Shown: positions 36,830 through 51,209 of the stretch, piece by piece
Layout of the letters: every line of letters begins with the position of its first letter
Position numbering within the stretch: position 1 is the first letter of the stretch
DNA from: Candidatus Multivoradales bacterium
GTDB taxonomy: Bacteria; Acidobacteriota; Thermoanaerobaculia; Multivoradales; JAHEKO01
Reading direction: 5' to 3'
Length of the DNA stretch: 64,000 nucleotides
Assembly (NCBI GenBank): GCA_965223855.1
Contig: CBDCXM010000009.1
Location: 544,001 to 608,000 of the forward strand
Program-made: the position numbers and the translations under genes
Notes under the pieces: generated by a model
The model's database searches: none
The model's input: only the letters and a program-made list of their open reading frames with translations
Told to the model about the DNA's origin: nothing

Positions 36830-38272
36830 TCAGACGATGCGGAAGTGATCGACCATCACGCAGCGGCGCAGGCGGCTGAAGCTGATCGGCCCGGTCAGGC
36901 CCTCGCCGGTCGGGCTGGCGATGGTGAAGCTGGTGTGGCCCTCGCCTCCCTCGCCGAGACCGGCATAGAACGGACCGTTCTTGGTGAAGATGCTGGTGTT
37001 GATCACCCGGGCCATCTTCGACAGCGCCTCGATGTCGCGCGAGTACATGCCGGACGAATGGCCGAAGCCGTGCTCCGCCTCCTTCGCCAGCTCGATGCCG
37101 CGATCCACGTCGGGGACGGAGGTGACCGGCAGCACCGGCATCATCTGCTCGGTCCACACCAGCGGATGCTCGTTCGGCACGCGCGCCACGGCGAGGCGTG
37201 GGTTGCCGTGACCGGAGATGCCGGCCGCATCGAGAATCACCCCAGCATCCTTGCCGATGAAGTCTTTGTGGACCACCGAGCGGCGACCCGGGCCGCGGTT
37301 CTCGGCAAAGATCGTCCGCTCGACCTTCTCGAGCTCCGCCGGGTCGAGCAGGTAGGCACCGTGGCGCTCCATCTGCGCGACGAGCTCGTCGACGATCGAG
37401 TAGACGGCGATCACTTCCTTTTCGTCGGTGCAGACGATGTTGTTGTCGAACGACGCCCCGGCGACGATCGACCTGCCGGCGTGCTCGAGGTCGGCGGTCT
37501 CATCGACCACCACCGGCGGGTTGCCAGGGCCGGCGCAGATCGCCCGCTTGCCGCTCTTCATCGCCGCGCGCACGACTCCCGTGCCGCCTGTGACCACCAG
37601 CAAACGGATCCCCTTGTGGGTCATCAGCTCCTGCGCCGACTCGATCGTCGGCTGCGCCACGCCGCAGACGACGTTCGGCGGTCCGCCGGCCGCCTGGATC
37701 ACCCGGTGGAGCAGACGGATGTTGTGCTTCGAGCATTCGGCGGCGTTGGGGTGGACGTTGAAGACCACGGTGTTGCCGGCCGAGACCATGGCGATCGTGT
37801 TGCAGATGATCGTCGAGGTCGGATTGGTGGTCGGCGTGATCGCGCCGATGACGCCGTAGGGAGCGTACTCGGTGAGGGTGAGGCCCCGGTCGCCGGTCAC
37901 CGCCTGCGGCGTCAGCGTTTCGACGCCGGCGGTCTTGTTGGTGACCAGCCGGTTCTTGACGATCTTGTCGCTCGTGCGCCCGAGGCCGGTCTCTTCGTGC
38001 GCCATGCGAGCCAGCTCCTCGGCATGCTCGAGCATCGACTCGCGGATCGCCGCGATGATGGTGGTGCGTCGCTCGAGCGACAGCTCATCGAGTCGCCGGA
38101 ACGCCTCCCGGGCCGCAGCGACGGCATCATCGACGGTCGCGAAGATCCCTTCGCCGAGCCCGGCGCCGGTCGACGTCGACGGCACGGATGCCGGTCCGGC
38201 GGAGGCTCCTCCCGCAATCCGCGCCGCCAGCCGGTCGGCGATCCGCTCGACCTGAGCCTCGCTGAGGCTCAC
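36830..38272 (-). CDS. eutE: CoA-acylating aldehyde dehydrogenase (EutE/PduP type) with N-terminal encapsulation peptide
   Basis: ETGLG, PTTNPTST, VTGG, AGPGNPP, SFDNNIVCTDEK, EQMMP; N-terminal helix SEAQVERIADRLAARI. Confidence 0.93.
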   Translation of the reverse strand: MSLSEAQVERIADRLAARIAGGASAGPASVPSTSTGAGLGEGIFATVDDAVAAAREAFRRLDELSLERRTTIIAAIRESMLEHAEELARMAHEETGLGRTSDKIVKNRLVTNKTAGVETLTPQAVTGDRGLTLTEYAPYGVIGAITPTTNPTSTIICNTIAMVSAGNTVVFNVHPNAAECSKHNIRLLHRVIQAAGGPPNVVCGVAQPTIESAQELMTHKGIRLLVVTGGTGVVRAAMKSGKRAICAGPGNPPVVVDETADLEHAGRSIVAGASFDNNIVCTDEKEVIAVYSIVDELVAQMERHGAYLLDPAELEKVERTIFAENRGPGRRSVVHKDFIGKDAGVILDAAGISGHGNPRLAVARVPNEHPLVWTEQMMPVLPVTSVPDVDRGIELAKEAEHGFGHSSGMYSRDIEALSKMARVINTSIFTKNGPFYAGLGEGGEGHTSFTIASPTGEGLTGPISFSRLRRCVMVDHFRIV

Positions 38273-38568
38273 CCGTCAGCCCCCTTGCTGTAGCGCTCCT
38301 TGCCGTCGGTCTCCCAGCTGTCGACGATCGCCATCACCACGGCGTCGACCGGCTTGCCGTCGGTCGCCGCCGTCTGGCGGGCCGACGAACCGCTGGCGAA
38401 GAGCACCATCTCGCCGACCCCGGCACCGACGCCGTCGACCGCCACGACCGATCCACCGGCCGGCTTGTTGTCCGGCCCGTAGAGACCGAGCATCAGGAAG
38501 CGCAGCCCCCTGAGCTTCTCCTCCTTCTGGGTGGCGACGACGGTGCCGAGCACCTTGGCGAGCTTCAC
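38269..38568 (-). CDS. BMC pentamer (EutN/CcmL)
   Basis: KLAKVLGTVVATQK, VAVDGVGAGVGE, SGSSAR, PVDAVVMAIVD. Confidence 0.95.
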   Translation of the reverse strand: MKLAKVLGTVVATQKEEKLRGLRFLMLGLYGPDNKPAGGSVVAVDGVGAGVGEMVLFASGSSARQTAATDGKPVDAVVMAIVDSWETDGKERYSKGADG

Positions 38569-38569
38569 G

Positions 38570-38872
38570 CTACTTCTTGGCCTTGGCGGCCTCGGCGTCA
38601 CGTCCCAGCGGGATCACCAGATCGACGTTGGTGTGCGGCCGAGCGATCACATGCACCGCCACGACGTCACCGACTCGCGCCGCCGCCGTCTGCCCGGCGT
38701 CGCATGCCGCCTTCACCGCCGCCACGTCGCCGCGGATGACCGCGGTCGTGTAGCCGCCGCCGGTCTTCTCGTAGCTCACGAGCTCGACCCGCGCCGCCTT
38801 GACCATGGCATCGGCCGCCTCGACCATCGCCGGGAAGCTCCGGCATTCGACCATTCCCAAAGCTTCGGACAT
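38570..38872 (-). CDS. BMC hexamer (EutM/PduA type)
   Basis: [34 protein letters not shown]. Confidence 0.97.
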
Positions 38873-39569: not shown

Positions 39570-40910
39570 TCAGGCGCTCACGGTGGCCGCCACCGCCTCC
39601 TGGACGATCGCGATCGAGGCGCTGGCACCGAGCCGGGTCGCCCCCGCCTCGATCATCGCCCGCGCATCGCTGTAGGACTTGATGCCGCCGGACGCCTTGA
39701 CCTCCATGCCGGCCGGCCGCACGACCTCGGCCATCAGGGCGACGTCGGCGACCGTTGCGCCGCCGGTCGAGAAGCCGGTCGACGTCTTGACGAAGTGCGC
39801 TCGCGCCTGGCGCGAGAGCTCCGACGCCCGCCTCTTCTCGTCGTCGGTCAGGAGCGCTGTCTCCAGGATCACCTTGCACACAGCGCTACCGTCGCGGCAC
39901 GCCTCGACCACCGCGCGGATGTCGCGCAGCACCAGATCCTCGAGACCGCTCTTCATGGCGCCGACGTTGAGCACCATGTCGATCTCCTTCGCCCCGGCGC
40001 GGATCGCGCGCCGAGCCTCGAACGCCTTGATCTCCGGCTCGTTGGCGCCGAGGGGGAAGCCGACCACCGTGCAGGTGAGCACCTCGGAGCCACGCAGCAG
40101 TCGAGCGGCCAGCGGTACCCAGGTCGGATTGACGCACACCGACCGGAAGTTGTGCTCCCGCGCCTCGGCACAGAGCTTCTCGACCTGGTCCTGGGTCGCG
40201 TCGGGTTTGAGCAGCGTGTGGTCGATGTAGCGGGCGAGGTCTTCAGGGATCCGCCCCGGCGGCTCGACCTCGGCGACACTGGTGAGCCCGGTTGCTCCCA
40301 GGCGGATCAGGCCACGGGCCGTCTCGGGGCAGTCGCCGACGCACTGCCCGGCAGGCTGCCCGACCGACCCGAGCTTGGCGTGAAGCCGGGCGATCACCCG
40401 CTCGAGGTCGTGCTCCGACAGCGCAGGTTCACCTCCGGCTGCCGCCGGAGCCACCGCGGGCCCCCCGGCGCCGGCGCCGTCGCCGATCATCGCCACCCGC
40501 TTGCGATGGCGCGGCTCGGTGCACTCCGTGGCAAGCCAGACGTCGACGATCTGACGCGCCAGCCCCGGCCCGATCAACGCGGCGCCGAGGGTCAGGACGT
40601 TGGCGTCGTTGTGCTCACGACTGTTGCGCGCGCTCGACACGTCGTAGGCGAGCGCAGCCCGCACGCCCGGCACCTTGTTGGCCGCCATCGAAGAACCGAT
40701 GCCTGCGCCGTCGATCATGATCCCGACGTCGGCACGCCCCTCCGCCACCGCCTCGGCCACCGCGCGGGCGAACACCGGGTAGTCAACCGCGTCGGTGGTC
40801 GAGGTCCCGAGGTCGGTCACCTGGTGCCCGGCCGCCGTCAGATGCCAGGTCAACGCCGCCTTGAGCTCGACTCCACCGTGGTCGGCACCGATGGCGATTC
40901 TCACGACCAC
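39570..40910 (-). CDS. deoC: RpiB-DeoC fusion (sugar-phosphate isomerase + deoxyribose-phosphate aldolase) with internal encapsulation-peptide-like helix
   Basis: GADHGG, DYP, DGAGIGS..ANKVPG, REHNDAN; [40 protein letters not shown]. Confidence 0.93.
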
Positions 40911-41245
40911 ACCTCCGAGTCGTCGCGACGTTCCGAGGCGAGCACCGGCCGGATCACCCCTTCCTCGCTCTCGAGCACCGACTGGAGCGTCCGAACATGA
41001 AATCGCAGCCGCTCGAGCCCGAGCTCGGTCATCCGGAACTCGGTCACCGAACGCCGACCCCGCAGCCCCTTGCGGATGTCGATGTATCCGGCATCGGCCA
41101 GCTTGTTGGTCTGCACATGGAGATTGCCGTCGGCAAGACCGGTCTCGCGCTTGAGCTCGGTGAAGCGCACCGCCTCGCCGGGGGCCAGGGTGGCCAGAAT
41201 GGCGAGCCGCGCAGGGGAGGTGATCATCTCGTCGAACTGTGGCAA
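40901..41245 (-). CDS. Winged-helix transcriptional regulator (HTH_34, MarR/ArsR-like)
   Basis: [31 protein letters not shown]; overlaps start of rpiB-deoC. Confidence 0.88.
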
Positions 41246-42266: not shown

Positions 42267-43211
42267 TCAGGTCTTGCAGGAAACCCCGTACACATGGCAA
42301 GTCCAGCAGGCCGGATGTGCCAGCGGGAAGGGGTTGAGGGTGTCCTTGAGCGTCTCCCCCATCTTGCCGCTCGGCTCGTTGACGAGGATCGGGCAGACCC
42401 ACACTCCCTGGTCGGTGACCATGCGGCAGTTGGAGCACTGGAGGTGGTCCCAGTCACCGTCCGGGGCGTCGCCTTCGCGCAGCACCTGCCAGCTCTCGTA
42501 GGCGGCGGAGCGCTCCGCTTCGGCGCCGATCCGGAACACCGGGAGGATCTTGAGCCGCGGGCGTTCGACGCCGAGCTCGCGCAGCAGCTCGAAGAAGCGC
42601 TCCTTGCCGGCGGCCGAACCGTTGGCGTCGTGGACCTCGGTGACGGTGATCACCGGGTTGATCCCGGCGGCGGCGAGGTTCGAGATCCCCTCGAGGATAC
42701 GGACGAAGGTCCCTTCGCCGCGGATCGGATCGTTGGACTCCGCATCGTAGCCGTCCATCGACACACGGAAGTCGAGCGAGTAGTCGGCTCCGGTGGCGAG
42801 CTCGGCCAGCCGCTCGCAGCGCGCCGGATCGAGCAGCAAACCGTTGGTCAGCACGTTGGCCGGACCGAAGTCCAGGGTGCGCGCGAGGATCGCCTCCATC
42901 TCCGGGTTGAGGAACGGCTCGCCGCCGGTGAAGTAGAACTCCCGCACCCCGAGCTCGGCCGCCTCGAGCAGGTAGGGCTCGATCTCCTCGAGCGTCATCC
43001 CCTCGTGGGTGTGATTGGTCGGCGACGACGAGACGAAGCAGTGGGTGCAGGCGAGGTTGCAGACCGTGCCGGCGACCTGGAACCACAGGGTGTCGAGGGA
43101 GCGCAGGGCGGCGACCGGCACGGCGCCGGGGCGCGGCTGCGGACTCACGGTCGCCGGGGTCGTCCCCTCCTTTTCAGTCACCGCGTTCTCAGCCATGGTG
43201 TTCTCAGCCAT
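42267..43211 (-). CDS. Radical SAM protein (distantly ArsS-like)
   Basis: CNLACTHC, TGGEPF, LTNG, C-terminal CSNCRM..CP..HPACWTC...SC; last gene of the arsM operon. Confidence 0.88.
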   Translation of the reverse strand: MAENTMAENAVTEKEGTTPATVSPQPRPGAVPVAALRSLDTLWFQVAGTVCNLACTHCFVSSSPTNHTHEGMTLEEIEPYLLEAAELGVREFYFTGGEPFLNPEMEAILARTLDFGPANVLTNGLLLDPARCERLAELATGADYSLDFRVSMDGYDAESNDPIRGEGTFVRILEGISNLAAAGINPVITVTEVHDANGSAAGKERFFELLRELGVERPRLKILPVFRIGAEAERSAAYESWQVLREGDAPDGDWDHLQCSNCRMVTDQGVWVCPILVNEPSGKMGETLKDTLNPFPLAHPACWTCHVYGVSCKT

Positions 43212-44010
43212 CGGTGCCTCCCACGTCGAGATAGTCGATCACTTCCGGGGTCTTGGGGTTGTCGAACAGCTCTCCGCAGCAGCCCACCTCGAGCACGCGA
43301 CCGACCCCGTCACGTCGGCAGACGCAGGCGACGTTGTCGGCCAGGCGCCGCGCCTGTGCGAGGTCGTGGGTGACGAGGACCACGGTGTGGTCGCGGGCGA
43401 GGTCGGCGGCGAGACGTTCGATGGCGGCGGTCGCCTTCGGGTCGAGAGCGCTCGTCGGCTCGTCCATCAGGATCACCTCGGGCCTCAGCGCCAGGGCGCG
43501 GGCGAGGCACAGTCGCTGTTGCTGGCCGACCGAGAGTTCGACCGCCGGGCGATCGAGCCGGTCGGCGACCTCGTCCCACAGCGCCGAGCCGTCGAGCGCC
43601 TCGCGCAGCCGCTCCTCGAGGCCGTCGCGGCTCAGCCGCTCGACCTGGCGGACGCCGAAGAGGACGTTGCGGCGGATCGACGCCGGGAAGACCACCGGCT
43701 GCTGGAAGAGCATGCCGATGCGGCTGCGGAGGCGGTCGGCATCGACGGCGGCGCCGTAGATCGGTCGGCCGCGAAACAGCACCTCGCCCGTCACTTCGAG
43801 CGGCGGCGACTCGAGCTCGAGGAGCCGGTTGAACGCCTTGAGGAGCGTGCTCTTGCCGGCGCCCGACGGTCCGATGACGGCGAAGATGCCGCGCTCGGGG
43901 ATCGCGAGATCGACCGCGTCGAGGATCGCCTGCTCACCGCTCGCCACGCGCAGGTTGCGGGCGGTGAGGATCGGCTCCGGGGGTGCCGGCATCGACAGGA
44001 CGTCAGCCAT
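43204..44010 (-). CDS. pstB: PstB-like ABC ATPase
   Basis: GPSGAGKST, IGMLFQQP, LSVGQQQRLCLARAL, MDEPTSALDP, VTH, LF.NP. Confidence 0.88.
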   Translation of the reverse strand: MADVLSMPAPPEPILTARNLRVASGEQAILDAVDLAIPERGIFAVIGPSGAGKSTLLKAFNRLLELESPPLEVTGEVLFRGRPIYGAAVDADRLRSRIGMLFQQPVVFPASIRRNVLFGVRQVERLSRDGLEERLREALDGSALWDEVADRLDRPAVELSVGQQQRLCLARALALRPEVILMDEPTSALDPKATAAIERLAADLARDHTVVLVTHDLAQARRLADNVACVCRRDGVGRVLEVGCCGELFDNPKTPEVIDYLDVGGTDG

Positions 44011-44854
44011 GTCGCGCCTCCTCCGCGGCTCTGAGGCGCAGCGGCAGCGCCGCGAGACTCAGACCCAGCACCAGCGCCAGCAGCACGAAGGCGGCCGCCC
44101 ACAGGTGGCTCGACGCCGCCGGGTCGAACGAGTCCTGGGCGAGCGTGAACACATGGTAGGGCAGCGCCAGGACCGGGCTCTCGACGACCCCGCGGGGGAG
44201 CGTCACGCCCGAGAAGACCGCGGCGGTGAAGAGGATCGGCGCCGTCTCGCCGGCGGCACGGGCGAGCCCCAGGAGCGCCCCCGACGCCCCGCCGGCCCAG
44301 CATTGCGGCAGCACCACGGTCGTAGCGACCTGTGCGCGGCTCAGCCCGAGCGCCGAAGCGGCCGAGAGATAGCGGGTCGGCAACGCCTCGATTCTCTCGA
44401 CGAGGGCGACGGCGATCGTCGGCACGATCATCCAGCCGAGCACGATGCCCCCACCGAGCCACGACTTGCCCCAGCCGAAGAACTTGACGAACACGATCAG
44501 GCCGAGGATTCCGAACAGGATCGACGGCACCGCGTGGACGGCGTAGAGGATCCGCTTCATCGTGCGGCCGGTCCGCGCGCCGACCCACAGCGTCTCGATG
44601 AGCGACCAGCCCAGCGCGAGCGGCGCCGCCACGGCCAGCGCCGTGGTCACCAGGAGCAGCGTGCCGAGAAGCTGGTATCGCACCCCGCCGCTGCCGATCC
44701 GTTCGCCGGCGGCGGCGGTGACGAACTCGCCGCCCAGGCTCGGCAGGCCGCGCACCAGGATCACAGCGACGATGCCGACGAGTAGCGCGCAGGCGGCAAC
44801 CGCGCAGGCGGCGGCTGAGACCTTCAGGCCGCGATCGAGCGCCCTACGCACCAC
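44003..44854 (-). CDS. pstA: PstA-like permease
   Basis: VPSILFGILG, ASALG, ARAAGETAPILFT, LPYH. Confidence 0.88.
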   Translation of the reverse strand: MVRRALDRGLKVSAAACAVAACALLVGIVAVILVRGLPSLGGEFVTAAAGERIGSGGVRYQLLGTLLLVTTALAVAAPLALGWSLIETLWVGARTGRTMKRILYAVHAVPSILFGILGLIVFVKFFGWGKSWLGGGIVLGWMIVPTIAVALVERIEALPTRYLSAASALGLSRAQVATTVVLPQCWAGGASGALLGLARAAGETAPILFTAAVFSGVTLPRGVVESPVLALPYHVFTLAQDSFDPAASSHLWAAAFVLLALVLGLSLAALPLRLRAAEEARHG

Positions 44855-45728
44855 GCATCTCCCGGCGATCCGGCAGCCAACGGCCGGCGATCAGGGTGAG
44901 CGCCATCACCAGCGACAGCAGGACCAGCCCGAGGCCGACGATCGCTCCCCAGTGAAGCGGGTCGCCGTAGGCGAGGAAGGTCTCGGACGAGCCGAGCTTG
45001 CTGGTGAGCGTCTGCCCAGGCTCGAGCCAGGCGCGGAAGCCGAGCAACGCCTGGTTGTCCATCCGCCCGACGACCAGGAAGACGGCGATCGTCTCCCCCA
45101 TCGCGCGGCCGAGGCCGAGCAGCAGCGCGGCACCGAGCCCGGGGGCGGCCTGCGGCAAGGCGACCTTGACGACCGACTCCGCCTTCGTCGCTCCGAGCGC
45201 CCGGGCGGCGCGGCGCTGAGAGCCCGGCACGCCACGCAGCGCGTCGTCGGCGAGCGTCATCACCGTCGGCAGGATCATCACCGCCAGCAGCACGCCGGCG
45301 GTCAGCAGGGTGTCGCCCGAGAGCGGCTCGAACGGTTCGAGCAGGCGGTAGATCCAGTCGCGCAGCAGCAGCACCCCGAGGAGACCGAACACGACCGATG
45401 GGACCCCGGCGAGGAGCTCGATCGGCACCTTGACCCACCAGCGCCTGCGGTCGCTCATGTACTCCGCGGTCCAGATCGCCGCGCCGAGCGCCAGCGGCGC
45501 CGCCAGCACGAGCGCGATCGCCGACACGACGACCGAACCGTAGACCATCGGCAACACCCCGAACTCCTGCGCCCGGTAGTGCCAGGTCTTGCCCGTGAGG
45601 TAGCCGAGCCCCTCGTGCTGCCACACCGGCACGCTCTGGGCGACGAACGAGCCGAGGAGGGTGACGACGAAGGCGAGCGTCAGCGCCGTCGCGACCCAGC
45701 TCGCGGGACGGATCCAGCCGGCGTTCAT
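44844..45728 (-). CDS. pstC: PstC-like permease
   Basis: FGVLPMVYGS, ELLAGVPSVVFG, MILPT, ALGAT, GRAMGETIAV. Confidence 0.9.
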   Translation of the reverse strand: MNAGWIRPASWVATALTLAFVVTLLGSFVAQSVPVWQHEGLGYLTGKTWHYRAQEFGVLPMVYGSVVVSAIALVLAAPLALGAAIWTAEYMSDRRRWWVKVPIELLAGVPSVVFGLLGVLLLRDWIYRLLEPFEPLSGDTLLTAGVLLAVMILPTVMTLADDALRGVPGSQRRAARALGATKAESVVKVALPQAAPGLGAALLLGLGRAMGETIAVFLVVGRMDNQALLGFRAWLEPGQTLTSKLGSSETFLAYGDPLHWGAIVGLGLVLLSLVMALTLIAGRWLPDRREMRGA

Positions 45729-45762
45729 GGCCGGTCGGCGATCCCGTGGAGCGGCACGGACG

Positions 45763-46620
45763 TCATGGAGAACTCGTCGCCTCCGAGGATTGCGGCGGCA
45801 GCGGCAGGAAGCCGTGCCGGCCGACCAGCTCCTGGCCGCGCGCGTCGAGGATGAGATCGATCAGCCGCCGAGCTGCCCCATCGGGCGGACCGTCGGTCAT
45901 CACGTTGAGCGGCCTGGCAAGCGGATAACGGCCGCTGAGCACGTTGTCGCTCGTCGGTCGCACCTCTTCCTCGCCCGGCTCGCACAGCCCGAGGGCGAAG
46001 GTCCTCTCTCCGTCGGCCCAGGCGGCGGAGAGCTGCGTGACGGCGCCGCGGGTGGAGGCGACCTTGGTGCGCGCCTCCTCGTTCGAACCGACCTCCGGCA
46101 GACTCACCAGCGGCGCGGCGTCGCCGTCGCCGTAGAGCCAGTCGGCGAACACCTCCCATGTGCCGCGCCCGGGCTCCTTGTTGAAGAACACCACGCGGCG
46201 ATCGGGGCCGCCGACCTCGGTCCAGCGCGCGGTCTCGCCCTCGTAGAGGGAGCGCACCTGGGCACGTGAGAGACAGCGCACTCCGGCCTGCCAGACATCC
46301 GCCGACACGACCAGCGCAAGTGCATCCGAGCCGAGGGTCGTCACCCGGAAGTCGACGTGCGGGAAACGCTCACGGTCGCCCGCGGTGAGCGGCCGCGACA
46401 CCATCGCCAGGTCGGCGCGCCCGTCGGCCAGCGCCGCGATACCTCCGGAGCTGCCGCCCGCCGTATCGACGTGGATCTCGAGCCCCTCCTCGGCGCGCAG
46501 GATGGCCGCCGCCTCGCTGACCACCGGATTGACGGTCGTCGAGCCGTTGATGCGCAACGCCGCCGAAGCCGGCAGCGCCAGCAGCACGACCGCGACCCAG
46601 GCGACGCCCCTCAGCAACAT
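45763..46620 (-). CDS. pstS: PstS-like periplasmic oxyanion-binding protein with atypical pocket
   Basis: Signal peptide; INGSTTV, GGSSGG, MVSR, DAL, KEPGRGT, YPLARPL. Confidence 0.85.
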   Translation of the reverse strand: MLLRGVAWVAVVLLALPASAALRINGSTTVNPVVSEAAAILRAEEGLEIHVDTAGGSSGGIAALADGRADLAMVSRPLTAGDRERFPHVDFRVTTLGSDALALVVSADVWQAGVRCLSRAQVRSLYEGETARWTEVGGPDRRVVFFNKEPGRGTWEVFADWLYGDGDAAPLVSLPEVGSNEEARTKVASTRGAVTQLSAAWADGERTFALGLCEPGEEEVRPTSDNVLSGRYPLARPLNVMTDGPPDGAARRLIDLILDARGQELVGRHGFLPLPPQSSEATSSP

Positions 46621-47768
46621 CCGTCCGGGCCGCAACAGTCGGCGGCCGCCTCGACGGTGGCGTCGTAGTCCTCGCCCTTGGTCTCGCGCGGATGGCGGAG
46701 CACCGTCCGGGAGCAATCGAACGGCTCGGCACCTTCGAGCGGGATCTCCTCCAGCGGATCGACGAAGTCGAACTGCCCCGTGTAGGGCTCCTGGCGGTAG
46801 AGCTCATAGGTCTTGTCGCACACCGCGTAGCGGTAGCCACGCTGCATCCGATGGCCGTCGTCGTCGAGCACCTCCTTGAAGGGGCCGCGGTAGACCACCG
46901 CCTGCTTGCGCTCCCAGCACGCCCCCTCCTTGCCCTTGAACGCCTCGACGGTAAGCGAGCGGAACTCGATCCCCTCCACCGTCTGCCACGGCTCGACCTG
47001 GCGCTCGAGCACCCGGATGCCGTGAAAGCCGGCGCGCTCGAACGCCTCGAGGAAGCCGCTCTCGGTGAGCGCCCCGGAGATGCAGCCGCTCCACAACTCC
47101 GGATCCTGCTGCAGCTCGAGCGGCACTTCCTCGTCGCTCACGATGTCGGAGATCACCGCCCGGCCGCCGCGGCGCAGCACCCGGTAGATCTCTTCGAACA
47201 TCTGCTCCTTGAGGTCGCTGTCGACGAGGTTGAGGACACAATTCGAAACCACGACGTCGACCGAATCGGAGGCGATCATCGGCTCGCTGGTCCGCAGCCG
47301 GGCCGCGACCTCCTCCAGCTGGATCAGCCGCTCGACGCTGTCGACCGGCTGCTTCGCGAGCTCCGCTTCCAACCGGTCGAGATCGAGCGCCAGATCCTGA
47401 ATCCGGCCACGCCGGAACTCGACGTTCGAGAACCCCGTCTTCTCCGCCACCACCGGCTCGTTGCGGCGCGCGACGTCGAGCATGTCCGGGGTCATGTCGA
47501 CGCCGATCACCCTCCCCTCGGCACCCACCACCTGAGAGGCGATGAAGCAGATCTTGCCGGTGCCGCTGCCGAGATCGAGCACGGTCTCGCCGGGCTTGAG
47601 GTGCTTCGACGGATCGCCGCAGCCGTAGTCGCGCTCGATCACCTCGCTGGGGATCACCTCGAGGTACTGCGGGTCGTAGTCGACCGGGCAGCACAGCTCC
47701 GGCACCTGGGCGCGAGCCCCCTCGCTGTAGCGCTCGCGGACGTTCTTCTCTACATTGGCAACGGACAT
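46611..47768 (-). CDS. arsM: Arsenite methyltransferase-like (ArsM/AS3MT type) SAM methyltransferase
   Basis: RBS AAGGAG; LCCP, DYGCG, VLDLGSGTG, GVDMT, SNCVLNL, WSGCISGA, VCDKT, C-terminal CCGPDGCC. Confidence 0.8.
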   Translation of the reverse strand: MSVANVEKNVRERYSEGARAQVPELCCPVDYDPQYLEVIPSEVIERDYGCGDPSKHLKPGETVLDLGSGTGKICFIASQVVGAEGRVIGVDMTPDMLDVARRNEPVVAEKTGFSNVEFRRGRIQDLALDLDRLEAELAKQPVDSVERLIQLEEVAARLRTSEPMIASDSVDVVVSNCVLNLVDSDLKEQMFEEIYRVLRRGGRAVISDIVSDEEVPLELQQDPELWSGCISGALTESGFLEAFERAGFHGIRVLERQVEPWQTVEGIEFRSLTVEAFKGKEGACWERKQAVVYRGPFKEVLDDDGHRMQRGYRYAVCDKTYELYRQEPYTGQFDFVDPLEEIPLEGAEPFDCSRTVLRHPRETKGEDYDATVEAAADCCGPDGCC

Positions 47769-47912
47769 CGCTCTCTCCTTCTCGGCACCACTCCACTCTG
47801 GCTTCACGCGAGTCGGCCTGCGGCCCGCGGAACGCTGCGGCGACCGCCCTCGCGGTCGACCGCTTTCCCGCCGGTGCGCGAGGAACGCGCTACCGGCTCT
47901 TCGCCCTGGAGG

Positions 47913-48674
47913 TCAGAGGGGAGGGGCGCGGCCCGCGGGGGCGGCAACCGCCTCGGCGGGGCGAAGCCGACGCGGCGCTCCGGCCCAGCGGGCGAGGCTC
48001 GCGAGGGTGACGCCGACGCGCGCCAGCAACCTGCGCCAGGCGCCGGTCAGCAGGCGGGCCCGTGCGCTCCACCATTCGAGATCGTTCCTCGAGTCGAGGT
48101 CGCGCAACGGCTCGAGCAGGTGGACCCGGAGGCCCGCGGTCTCGAGCGTCTCGACGAGCGAGCGGAGGGTCGCGGTGGAGCGCCAACGCACCCGGTCGAG
48201 CAACGCCGCCACCGGCCGCGCGGCCGCCAGCAGGTAGATCCCGCCGTCGGTCGACGGCCCGACGACCACGGAGTCGGGTCGGGTAGTGACCCGCTGCAGT
48301 GCCGCGGCCACCGTCTGGCGGCCGATGCCGGGCGTATCCGTGCCGACCACCACCAGCGGTGCCGACCCCTCCGCCTCGACGGTCGCCACGGCGGCGACCA
48401 GGCGCTCGCGGAAACTGTCGCCCGCCTGCGTCACGAAGGTCGCGTCGGCGACCCGTGAGGCGCTGCGCGGTGCCGCCATCACGAGGCGGCAGCCGTTCGC
48501 TCGCCCCGCCTCGAGGACCGCCGCCAGCCCCTGTTCGTGGACCGCGCGCTCGATCGCTGCGCCCCGCGCGCCGAGCCAGCCGCGACGGGCCTGTTCGCGG
48601 CCCGGCCCGAGCGTGAAAACGACGAGGGCGGGCGCGTCGGGGCGGGCGGCGGTGCTGGGGCGGTTCAGGGGCAC
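47913..48674 (-). CDS. DUF2064 (TIGR04282-like glycosyltransferase-fold) protein with C-terminal RAPP motif
   Basis: QAGDSFRERL, VGTDTP, GPSTDGGIYL, W, LRDLD; ends ...PAGRAPPL*. Confidence 0.82.
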   Translation of the reverse strand: MPLNRPSTAARPDAPALVVFTLGPGREQARRGWLGARGAAIERAVHEQGLAAVLEAGRANGCRLVMAAPRSASRVADATFVTQAGDSFRERLVAAVATVEAEGSAPLVVVGTDTPGIGRQTVAAALQRVTTRPDSVVVGPSTDGGIYLLAAARPVAALLDRVRWRSTATLRSLVETLETAGLRVHLLEPLRDLDSRNDLEWWSARARLLTGAWRRLLARVGVTLASLARWAGAPRRLRPAEAVAAPAGRAPPL

Positions 48675-48765
48675 ACAGTTCCTACGAGACCGAAACGGCA
48701 ACGGTTTTCCCGTTGGAGTCTACCCGTTGGGGGATCCTTCGCCTCGGCCCTTCGCATCGACTCAG

Positions 48766-49185
48766 ATGCAGCGGCGGTCGGGCTATCATCGGCCTCCCTT
48801 GATCCGCTTCCTCTTCCTCACGATCCCGCTCGCGACCCTGCTGCTGGGCGGTGCAGCGCTCGGCTTCGATCTGCTCGACGGCGGCGAGTTCGGACCGCGT
48901 CTCGACGGAAAGACGGTGGCGGGCGGCTGGCTCCTCGAAGCGACCGCTCTGGCGGCCCTCTTTCTGCTGGTCCAGGGCCGGGGCGGCAGCTGGTGGCTCG
49001 ACGGACTGCTCGCCGCCTGGCTCGGCTGGATCTTCCGCGGCCCGGTGATGGTGCTGGTGGTGGTCGAGCAGCTCGGCGGCGGCCGCGACCCGTGGTGGAC
49101 GATGGCGCTCCAGTCGCTGCTCGTCTACTCGCTGGTCGGCTTCCTGATGGCGCTCGTGGCGCGGAAGCTCGGGGTCCGGCGGTGA
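48766..49185 (+). CDS. Hypothetical 4-TM membrane protein
   Basis: Four hydrophobic helices; GTGA overlap with the PKS gene; start uncertain. Confidence 0.65.
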   Translation: MQRRSGYHRPPLIRFLFLTIPLATLLLGGAALGFDLLDGGEFGPRLDGKTVAGGWLLEATALAALFLLVQGRGGSWWLDGLLAAWLGWIFRGPVMVLVVVEQLGGGRDPWWTMALQSLLVYSLVGFLMALVARKLGVRR

Positions 49186-50243
49186 GGATCGCGGGGCTCG
49201 GGCACGCGTTCCCGCCCCATTTCTACGATCAGCAGCAACTCATCGCCGCCGCCGAGGCGCAGTGGGGCTCCGACTTCCACAACCCGGAGCGGATCCGCCG
49301 ACTGTTCTCGAACGTCGCCGTCGGCGGCCGCCATCTGGCGCTGCCGCTCGAGCGCTATGCCGACCTCGGCTCGTTCGGGGCCGCCAATGACGCCTGGATC
49401 GAGGTCGGCACGGCGATCGGCGCCGAGGCGCTCGAGGCGGCCCTCGACGACGCCGGGCTGACGGCGGAGACGCTCGAGGCGCTCGTCACCGTCTCCGTCA
49501 CCGGGCTCGCTACGCCGTCGCTCGACGCCCGGTTGATGAACGTGATGCCGCTTGCGCCGACCCTCAAGCGGACGCCGATCTTCGGCCTCGGCTGCGTCGC
49601 CGGGGCCGCCGGCCTGGCGCGCGCGGCAGACTACCTGCGTGGGCACCCCGGCGCGGCGGTCGCGCTGTTGTCGGTCGAGCTGTGCTCGCTCACGCTGCAG
49701 CGCGAGGACCTGTCGATCGCCAACCTGATCGCCTCGGGGCTCTTCGGCGACGGCGCCGCGGCGGCCGTCCTCGTCGGCGCGGAGCATCCCGCCGTCCACC
49801 ATGCGGCGGGGCCGCGGATCGTCGATACCCGCGCCTCCTTCTATCGAGACACCGAGGACGTGATGGGTTGGACGATCTCCGAGCGCGGCTTCCAGATCGT
49901 ACTGTCGGCCGAGGTACCGGAGATGGTGGAGCGCCACCTGAGGGCCGACGTCGATGCCTTCCTCGCCGACCACGGTCTCGAGCCTGGCGACATCGGCTGC
50001 TGGACCGCGCACACAGGAGGGCCACGCGTGCTCGAAGCGATGGAATCCGCGCTCGAGCTCCCGGCGGGTGCCCTCGACGCGAGCTGGCGCTCGCTGCGCG
50101 AGGTCGGCAACCTGTCGTCGACCTCCGTCTTGCTGGTGCTGGAGGAGACGGTCCGCGAAGATCGCCCCGAACCGGGCACGCCGGGGCTGCTGATGGCGAT
50201 GGGCCCCGGGTTCTGCTCCGAGCTGGTACTGCTCGAGTGGTGA
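49182..50243 (+). CDS. Type III polyketide synthase (SrsA/FtpA-like)
   Basis: FGLGCVAG (Cys), VELCSL, LFGDGAAA, HTGG (His), GNLSS (Asn), MGPGF. Confidence 0.95.
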   Translation: MRIAGLGHAFPPHFYDQQQLIAAAEAQWGSDFHNPERIRRLFSNVAVGGRHLALPLERYADLGSFGAANDAWIEVGTAIGAEALEAALDDAGLTAETLEALVTVSVTGLATPSLDARLMNVMPLAPTLKRTPIFGLGCVAGAAGLARAADYLRGHPGAAVALLSVELCSLTLQREDLSIANLIASGLFGDGAAAAVLVGAEHPAVHHAAGPRIVDTRASFYRDTEDVMGWTISERGFQIVLSAEVPEMVERHLRADVDAFLADHGLEPGDIGCWTAHTGGPRVLEAMESALELPAGALDASWRSLREVGNLSSTSVLLVLEETVREDRPEPGTPGLLMAMGPGFCSELVLLEW

Positions 50244-50321: not shown

Positions 50322-51209
50322 ATGACCACCGACCCGACGTCCCCGGAACTGCGCCGCCTGGTCGCCTGCCCCGGCTGCGCGTTGCAGTACGACGCCACCG
50401 GCCACGAGCCGCCGGGGCGCTTCCGCTGCGCCTGTGGGGAGGTGGTCGTGGTCGAAGCCGGCGTCCCGGCCGAGGCGGCAGTGGTGCGCTGCTCCGCTTG
50501 TGGCGCTCCACGCCGCCACGCGGCGCCGGCCTGCGAGCACTGCGGCGCCGACTTCACCCTTCACGAGCGCGACCTCCACACGCTGTGTCCGGGTTGCGTC
50601 ACCCGTATCAGCGACCGCGCACGCCACTGCCACGCCTGCGGCATCGCGATCGTGCCGCAGGGCCGCGTCGGCGCGCTGACCGATCGACCGTGTCCGGTGT
50701 GCGGAGAGTCGCATCGTCTCTACAGCCGCAACGTCGAGGGGCAGATCACGGTGCTCGAGTGCGACCACTGCGCCGGTCTGTGGCTCGGCCACCGCATCTT
50801 CGAGCTGCTCGAGACGGCCTCGGAACGAGCGCTCGAGCCGCTGGGAGAGGTCGAGGCCGCGCCGGTGACGGACGTGGCCGCCCTCGACGGCACCAGCTTC
50901 TACCGCGCCTGCCCGCAATGCTCGAAGCTCATGCATCGTCGCAACTACGGGCGCAAGAGCGGGGTGATCGTCGACGTCTGTCAGCAGGACGGCATCTGGT
51001 TCGATCGTGGCGAGCTCGACCGCATCCTCGCCTGGCGGCGCGACGGCGGTGCGCTGCGGGCCGAGCGCCTCGCTGCCGAGACACCTCCGGCCCGCGACGC
51101 CGGAGCCGCCACGCCGACGCTGCCCGACCTGATGGGCGACGGCGACCACCCGGCTCTCGACTTCATCGAGATGCTGCTCGACGCGCTGCTCGGCTTTCTC
51201 CGGCGCTAG
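50322..51209 (+). CDS. Multi-zinc-ribbon protein with two zf-TFIIB-like domains
   Basis: Many CxxC pairs; C..C.GLWL and DVC..DGIWFDRGEL motifs. Confidence 0.85.
   Translation: MTTDPTSPELRRLVACPGCALQYDATGHEPPGRFRCACGEVVVVEAGVPAEAAVVRCSACGAPRRHAAPACEHCGADFTLHERDLHTLCPGCVTRISDRARHCHACGIAIVPQGRVGALTDRPCPVCGESHRLYSRNVEGQITVLECDHCAGLWLGHRIFELLETASERALEPLGEVEAAPVTDVAALDGTSFYRACPQCSKLMHRRNYGRKSGVIVDVCQQDGIWFDRGELDRILAWRRDGGALRAERLAAETPPARDAGAATPTLPDLMGDGDHPALDFIEMLLDALLGFLRR

Follow-up and report, generated by a model that had tools for sequence, protein, structure and literature searches.

Proteins of fewer than 300 residues that carry a RAPP or RGPP motif near their C-terminus, and whose genes lie upstream of diverse other genes, were published as a class of translation arrest peptides in 2025 (PMC12992588). 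Mutagenesis of ApdA and ApdP, as reported there, found Gly fully permissive at the second position of the core, Ser, Asp and Pro partially permissive, and the Arg irreplaceable. According to the same survey, all seven C-terminal RAPP/RGPP proteins of S. lividans that were assayed arrest translation, one of them having no localisation signal, and the source of the pulling force is left as a question for cases in which the arrest is not tied to protein localisation. Other cores are on record, since RGSP is described as a proven arrest core in the SecM of Mannheimia, together with NSP/NAP-stop arrest candidates specific to Bacteroidota (PMC10987492). Here, we focus on a DUF2064-like protein with a C-terminal RAPP tail, encoded by the first gene of a minus-strand operon that continues with arsM, a Pst-like transporter and a radical SAM gene. 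The operon lies in a stretch of 64,000 nucleotides (nt), hereafter the window, from Candidatus Multivoradales bacterium (Acidobacteriota; assembly GCA_965223855.1, contig CBDCXM010000009.1, positions 544,001 to 608,000), and all coordinates refer to the first letter of that window.

With regard to mechanism, the best point of reference is CruR. Its RAPP stall, on the first gene of the operon, is reported to shield a C>G-rich Rho utilisation (rut) region that extends from the 3' part of the coding sequence into a GC-rich spacer; ligand binding by nascent CruR relieves the stall, after which Rho terminates (PMC9426467). In the account given there, the distance separating CXXC from the RAPP motif is conserved at 45, and EF-P is not involved. 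The features of the window locus suggest that the tail of the DUF2064-like protein is, very probably, a translation arrest module of the RAPP type. With this conserved motif at its tail end, the product of the first gene probably also serves as a built-in switch for the genes behind it.

A conserved RAPP tail on a DUF2064-like protein

The tailed gene occupies 47913..48674 on the minus strand and codes for 253 residues from a GTG at 48674, the start given in the protein collection; the longest version of the open reading frame (ORF) covers 47913..48701 (-), with a TTG start at 48701. A Pfam scan of the protein returned DUF2064 (PF09837, 66 bits, above the gathering cut-off of 25.8) and NTP_transf_3 only. 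Its score against TIGR04282 is 82.6 bits, below the cut-off of 134, and the match covers profile positions 67-189 only. At the N-terminus, LVVFTLGPGREQARRGWLG replaces the canonical K.P..G.VKTRL motif, so that the first-pass annotation of the window, made from the sequence alone, was right to call the gene DUF2064-like and to note the missing loop. A canonical DUF2064 paralogue is encoded elsewhere in the same genome, with TKPAVPGRVKTRL at its N-terminus and no RAPP. The subfamily has a conserved N-terminal motif of its own, FTLGPxRExxRRxLLP. Across the family, Q70, R78, the Asp of the GTD motif (D100) and the PDGG residues are invariant (alignment numbering), and the family profile matches PDB 3CGX, a solved DUF2064 structure, with E = 6e-21.

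The protein would comprise two parts, namely, a divergent DUF2064 domain of the GT-A/MobA-like type and, at the C-terminus, a module some 50 residues long. DLDSRNDL (48078..48101, as all tail features on the minus strand), the last motif conserved in the core, lies 49 residues before the Arg of RAPP. The module would include an Arg/Leu amphipathic helix-like segment, WRRLLARVGVTLASLARW (47985..48038), whose register to RxPP is fixed in the family. It is followed by a Pro/Ala-rich linker (47934..47984) conserved in length and poorly in sequence (0.2-0.8 bits per position), then by the GRAPP codons GGC CGC GCC CCT CCC (47919..47933; RAPP codons 47919..47930) and by the last Leu codon with the TGA stop (47913..47918). 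The protein end is GRAPPL-TGA, 144 nt before arsM, as first noticed in the initial annotation.

Conservation of the motif was followed in homologues from a collection of 5.8 billion proteins, which yielded 84 matches, the motif being counted in the last 25 residues. R[AGS]PP is present in 81 of the 84 (RAPP in 53, RSPP in 15 and RGPP in 13), and the three sequences without it are two fragments and one distant DUF2064. Shuffled tails predict it in 2.3 of 84, and the motif is beyond chance by a wide margin. A homologue was found in 37 of 41 genomes related to that of the window, and the 20 best orthologue loci all place R[AGS]PP 1-9 residues before the stop, with unconserved residues after it; in the family at large, these residues range from 1 to 14 and vary in number and sequence. 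There are 173 representatives at 50% identity with E up to 1e-30, and of the best 150 of them, 129 carry R[AGS]PP, nine RPPP and two KAPP, the remainder without the motif being fragments, frameshifted forms or canonical DUF2064 proteins that have no tail. The first-pass annotation had named a lack of RAPP conservation among orthologues beforehand as a possible refutation of the arrest idea; at the peptide level, the motif proves near-invariant, and the idea is not refuted by this test. The tailed members come from metagenome-assembled genomes with the labels Thermoanaerobaculia, Holophagales or Acidobacteriota and, in two cases, Deltaproteobacteria. The same scan covered other phyla, whose canonical DUF2064 genes, about 50 in number, showed neither tail nor motif.

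The position-specific pattern of the core follows that of the described arrest peptides. The Arg is kept in 99% of 232 tails (selected by the motif), and the second position is occupied by Ala, Gly, Ser or Pro only, a natural set that matches the published arrest-permissive one. The codons of the motif vary synonymously (CGC/CGG/CGA for Arg, GCC/GCG/GCT for Ala, CCT/CCG/CCC for Pro), and selection thus acts on the peptide. Rare core variants of the acidobacterial-type family, RPPP (P0113, P0127, P0129, P0162, P0170, P0172, P0176, P0190 and P0213), KAPP (P0206 and P0211) and a single RGSP (P0166), could be used as probes of which cores arrest.

The background in the genome was estimated on 2620 ORFs, a heuristic gene set that takes in 71% of the DNA. 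RAPP and RGPP occur there at observed/expected ratios of 0.41 and 0.32, compared with 1.43 for AAPP, and R[AGS]PP lies within the last 15 residues of only three of the 2620 ORFs, the window protein included. The other two, encoded outside the window at L101:4131-4484 (-) and L102:461-973 (+), are proteins of 117 and 170 residues with N-terminal hydrophobic segments, located directly upstream of TonB-dependent receptor genes; the 117-residue protein is His-rich. Both are probable classical RAPP leaders of the published class.

Tail spacing, sensing and rival explanations

The distance from the DxDxxxDL motif to the Arg has a median of 50 and an interquartile range of 49-51 among 196 unique tails, and is 49 in the window, so that the linker length singled out for checking in the first-pass annotation turned out to be fixed. 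When tails are anchored at the Arg without gaps, W-37, L-34, L-30, L-26, R-21, P-20, P-17 and G-1 are recovered, and positions -19 to -2 carry little information. The hydrophobic residues are spaced i, i+3/4, i+7, a pattern that points to an amphipathic helix, and in the alignment with PDB 3CGX the helix-like stretch falls on the C-terminal region of that structure.

By analogy with the described peptides (PMC12992588), a stalled ribosome would carry R-A-P on its P-site tRNA (Pro codon 47922-47924), its A site being occupied by the second Pro codon (47919-47921). Judged from the general length of the tunnel, residues -20 to -37 would then sit in the distal tunnel or vestibule, with R-A-P at the peptidyl-transferase centre, and the DUF2064 core, ending at -50, would lie immediately beyond the exit port during the stall. 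The stall could be released by a pulling force that folding of the nascent domain, or its binding of a ligand, would generate. That the DUF2064 domain senses a ligand is a tentative proposal, to which we give somewhat less than even weight. The window protein has a single Cys, which makes thiol binding of As(III) unlikely; sensing of As(III) via cysteines was set aside on this ground, the semi-conserved cysteines of the family also being missing from the window protein.

A sister group also bears on the tail. In a core tree built without the tail, four homologues from Flavobacteriia fall inside the tailed clade (support 0.83). They are devoid of the canonical N-terminal loop, their tails end in (F/Y)NKGSP followed by about five residues, and in all four loci (L048:3902-4510, L058:1944-2621, L063:3836-4516 and L076, the motif of the last being immediately preceded by a frameshift) SusC-like and SusD-like genes follow 45-124 nt downstream. 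Starting from one of these proteins, xNKGSP was found in all 120 best homologues, within the last 20 residues in 117, and DxDxxxDx and the Lys are 46 apart in 117 of 117. Among the cultured carriers of the NKGSP form are Psychroserpens, Algibacter, Flavivirga and Polaribacter. A literature search returned no relevant paper on NKGSP, which, judged by its sequence, may be an arrest core of Bacteroidota type related to RGSP. That one arrest-like core has taken the place of another at the same position, in a gene heading a different operon, speaks for a tail with a regulatory role and not for a structural motif.

Extended to both groups, the proposal is that tailed DUF2064-like proteins are widespread cytosolic sensors of metabolites acting as nascent chains. 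The domain would be held at the ribosome exit by a ruler of 46 or 50 residues, and ligand-dependent folding would free the arrest core and switch operons, probably via Rho. We regard this generalisation as speculative, and a little less probable than ligand sensing itself. If true, RxPP in Acidobacteriota would switch arsenic methylation, radical SAM and phosphate-type transporter genes, and NKGSP in Flavobacteriia would switch SusC/SusD genes.

Two other explanations of the tail deserve attention. In the first, the arrest is constitutive: a fixed pause sets the ratio of upstream to downstream products or protects the transcript, without any ligand being sensed by the DUF2064 domain. Every argument for arrest holds for this explanation too, a ligand site cannot be pointed to, the nucleotide-binding loop at the N-terminus is altered, and the window protein has only one Cys. 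However, if it made no difference where the domain sits at the tunnel exit, a strict ruler of 46 or 50 residues between the end of the domain and the core would be difficult to account for. Moreover, CruR, which is built in the same way, is relieved by its ligand, and the subfamily keeps its own N-terminal motif. We consider a purely constitutive stall unlikely.

The second takes RxPP as a motif of the mature protein, whether a docking or recognition peptide, a degradation tag or a part of the fold, any pausing being incidental and regulating nothing. It draws on the full-size, conserved, enzyme-like domain with its invariant Q70, R78, D100 and PDGG, on the counterpart of the tail helix in 3CGX, on the fixed tail length that a structural element would also have, and on the absence of a conserved RNA device downstream. 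Against it, RxPP is the exact arrest core, and its natural variants are exactly those that permit arrest, while the residues after it vary from 1 to 14 in number, and in sequence. Moreover, RAPP and RGPP are otherwise avoided in the genome, with classical leaders as the other two C-terminal cases. The sister lineage swapped in an RGSP-like core and not an unrelated sequence, and the gene stays at the head of different operons. A role confined to the mature protein appears improbable, to about the same degree as a constitutive stall, and we retain arrest by the tail as the better reading.

Operon context and possible output of the proposed arrest

Downstream of the tailed gene, a spacer of 144 nt (47769..47912, minus strand like the whole operon) leads to the arsenite methyltransferase-like gene arsM (46611..47768, ATG at 47768; best NCBIfam match NF040538 with 346 bits, below the cut-off of 500), preceded by the Shine-Dalgarno (SD) sequence AGAAGGAG (47775..47782), which is predicted to be mostly unpaired. 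The Pst-like set (43204..46716) follows with a PstS-like gene (45763-46716), PstC (44844-45728), PstA (44003-44854) and a PstB-like ABC transporter gene (43204-44010), and then the radical SAM gene with its CNLACTHC motif (42267..43211). In 43 non-redundant loci, the gene after the tailed one is arsM in 29, a CNLACTHC radical SAM gene of the same family in eight and another gene in six, mostly for transporters (PhnS-like binding proteins, a TonB-dependent-receptor-like protein, a symporter, a lipoprotein). The spacers between tailed gene and arsM mostly measure 56-144 nt. The upstream neighbour in the window lies on the opposite strand, which makes the DUF2064-like gene the head of its transcription unit; by a rough method, 30 of 39 loci have no upstream ORF, or have the nearest one on the opposite strand. 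In the proposed mechanism, the duration of the stall would set the expression of arsM, the Pst-like transporter and the radical SAM gene.

How the stall would act on these genes can be proposed from CruR. As the most likely output, the stalled ribosome would shield the C-rich stretch around the stop from Rho, and once the stall is released, Rho would terminate in the spacer; this output is a reasoned analogy that the base composition supports in part. A C>G bubble, the candidate rut-like region, covers the codons of the tail together with the initial stretch of the spacer (47854..48011, minus strand). In 78-nt windows, C exceeds G at centres from -60 to +20 around the stop, and the skew is positive at -20 and 0 in 20 of 20 loci; its mean at -20 is +0.17, compared with a background of -0.02 (sd 0.09), a value reached by 1.7% of background genes. 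The first 40 non-coding nucleotides are C>G in 38 of 43 loci versus 50% of background 3' flanks. The stretch across the stop is weakly consistent with a CruR-like Rho mechanism. Genes for Rho and EF-P are present in the genome.

An alternative output was contained in the first-pass annotation, namely that the codons of RAPP and the stop pair with a segment 5' of the arsM SD, so that the stalled ribosome remodels the leader as in attenuation of the SecM/ermC type. The stem does exist in the window: a leader segment at 47785..47800 (minus strand) is complementary to 47914-47929 over 14 base pairs in three blocks, with a duplex energy of -24.4 kcal/mol, it is part of the minimum free energy fold, and it encloses the two spacer hairpins that had been pointed out (47870-47897 and 47837-47863, minus strand). 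Only one of 17 foreign leaders pairs as well with the window segment, and the spacer alone is somewhat more structured than its shuffles (z = -1.91; 8 of 200 as good), compared with a mean z of -0.69 over 17 spacers, of which only one falls below -2; for the fold of 47760-47945, z is -0.98 and 31 of 200 shuffles are as good. However, the stem is specific to this locus. Over 18 loci, cognate duplexes of RAPP segment and leader are no better than non-cognate ones (-20.3 versus -21.1 kcal/mol, permutation p = 0.86), and RNAalifold on 17 orthologous regions gave 0 consensus pairs. Opening the 31-nt footprint of a stalled ribosome barely moved mean SD accessibility (0.41 to 0.43; 5 loci up, 1 down and 12 unchanged of 18), and in the window, where the SD is already largely open, its unpaired probability fell from 0.64 to 0.50. 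The partners of the SD are mostly local, in the middle of the spacer. These tests are thermodynamic models on GC-rich RNA and not proof. Nevertheless, because the comparative tests are negative, pairing is rejected as a conserved device, and so is unmasking of the SD as a conserved mechanism; a conserved stem opened by the stalled ribosome, as in attenuators that sequester the SD (SecM-secA, MifM, ermCL), was not found in these loci. Tuning of arsM by such pairing is very unlikely.

Taken as a whole, the model in which an arrest module on a cytosolic enzyme-fold domain sets the expression of the downstream operon appears to us, on the sequence evidence, rather probable, though clearly less so than the arrest itself. 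Several points weigh against it. With regard to the motif, the relatives are not independent and the gene set behind the background figures is heuristic, RSPP, the core of 15 of the 84 members, is not under-represented in the genome (observed/expected 1.13), and KAPP occurs in 2 of 150 representatives, though the Arg is reported to be irreplaceable. The fixed length of the tail could reflect a structural role in the folded protein. The tailed family has no signal or transmembrane segment, while most described RAPP arrest peptides carry one; by hydropathy only, no N-terminal hydrophobic segment was seen in the family, and a 19-residue hydropathy of at least 1.6 was reached in 10 of 82 proteins, always internally. 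On the side of the output, the spacer shows neither consensus pairs nor a gain in SD accessibility upon stalling, as described above, and by the same rough method as before, a co-directional gene precedes the tailed one in 9 of 39 loci. The skew of the window after the stop is weak (+0.075). As a test of rut selection, synonymous C is not enriched in the tail (0.60 versus 0.57, p = 0.15), so that the Pro/Ala content accounts for the coding half of the C>G bubble.

As to the other genes, the tailed gene has a constant companion in the radical SAM family, whose motif is LDTLWFQVxGTVCNLACTHCF and whose members were seen downstream in L022, L031, L037, L043, L044, L045, L012 and L032; an unassigned protein of 315-340 residues and a flavoprotein come next in some loci. 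The best NCBIfam match of the radical SAM family is the Rv1681 family, at about 103-105 bits and below the cut-off of 380. An identity as the ArsL of arsinothricin synthesis was considered, the best match being this Rv1681 family below its cut-off. Just downstream of the radical SAM gene lies a gene for a fused RpiB-like isomerase and DeoC-like aldolase of 446 residues (39570..40910, minus strand), preceded by a winged-helix HTH_34 regulator gene (40901..41245, minus strand), and short ORFs at 38270-38872 resemble microcompartment shell proteins by eye. No ArsR gene was found among the scanned ORFs beside the operon, the nearest winged-helix gene, at 40901-41245, being marginal on an ArsR-family model (E 0.0099). 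On the other side, the divergent intergenic region 48675..48765 presumably holds the operon promoter; a scan of 47600-49400 returned 0 promoters, 0 terminators and no sigma-70-like site, and an Rfam scan of 47000-49500 returned nothing relevant. Beyond it, three ORFs run divergently on the plus strand, encoding a small membrane protein without a Pfam match (48766..49182), a type III polyketide synthase (49182..50243) and a protein with several zinc ribbons (50322..51209).

Comparison with described systems

A literature search found no paper on DUF2064, nor on arrest peptides or translation arrest in connection with arsenic or arsenite methyltransferase; the listed papers on TIGR04282 were unrelated by title, and the main text of the 2025 survey makes no mention of arsenic or methyltransferases (PMC12992588). 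The remark in the first-pass annotation that no described arrest leader has a DUF2064 fold agrees with this outcome, while the general class to which the tail would belong was published in that survey.

If the model is true, a layer of post-transcriptional control would be added to arsenic methylation and organoarsenical operons, and the label 'TIGR04282 family arsenosugar biosynthesis glycosyltransferase' on tailed proteins may hide a regulator. The family would also provide a concrete, testable case for a pulling force independent of localisation, with a soluble domain of about 200 residues, of known fold (3CGX) and at a fixed distance from the core, with hundreds of natural variants and with a sister group in cultured, non-pathogenic marine Flavobacteriia.

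CruR, a DUF2946 protein (bp2923 of Bordetella pertussis), shares with the window protein the position as first gene of an operon and a RAPP a few residues before the stop. As CruR is described, the likeness extends to a GC-rich intergenic region of 100-160 nt (144 nt here), to a conserved spacing between sensor and RAPP (45 in CruR and about 50 here) and to a C>G bubble that extends out of the 3' coding part to the spacer, seen here in the base composition (PMC9426467). In contrast, CruR is an exported, poorly structured protein of 145 residues that is reported to sense Cu via CXXC, whereas the protein described here has a cytosolic enzyme-fold domain of about 200 residues, no CXXC and no Pfam DUF2946 match, and the genes behind it serve arsenic methylation and phosphate-type transport instead of encoding a TonB-dependent transporter.

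With the RAPP-like arrest peptides (ApdA/ApdP/SecM-type and those of S. lividans), as presented in the published accounts, the family has in common the C-terminal R-[A/G]-P-P with the same tolerated variants, a length below 300 residues (253), a place directly upstream of co-directional genes and a variable sequence N-terminal to the core (PMC12992588, PMC10951233, PMC10987492). Most of these peptides are secretory or membrane 'monitoring substrates' released by the pulling of Sec or YidC, whereas the family here has a globular domain and no signal or transmembrane segment.

Canonical DUF2064/TIGR04282 proteins ('arsenosugar biosynthesis glycosyltransferase'; PDB 3CGX) resemble the tailed family in matching the Pfam model, in the motifs Q..G..G.R, G(T/S)D.P, GP..DGG.YL and D.D...DL, and in their genomic link to arsM and radical SAM genes. 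Unlike them, the tailed protein scores below the TIGR04282 cut-off, has the K.P..G.VKTRL loop replaced and carries about 30 extra residues ending in RxPP.

TnaC, the leader of tnaAB, is a peptide of 24 residues that responds to free Trp within the tunnel, its stall occurring at termination. As proposed for the tailed gene, its stall near the stop masks the region of Rho entry at the start of the spacer. Unlike TnaC, the RAPP core would act at elongation, and sensing is proposed to fall to a folded domain that lies outside the tunnel. In summary, the general kind of system is known; new here are the cytosolic enzyme-fold domain in place of a signal or transmembrane segment, the arsenic/organoarsenical operon, the acidobacterial range and the sister KGSP form.

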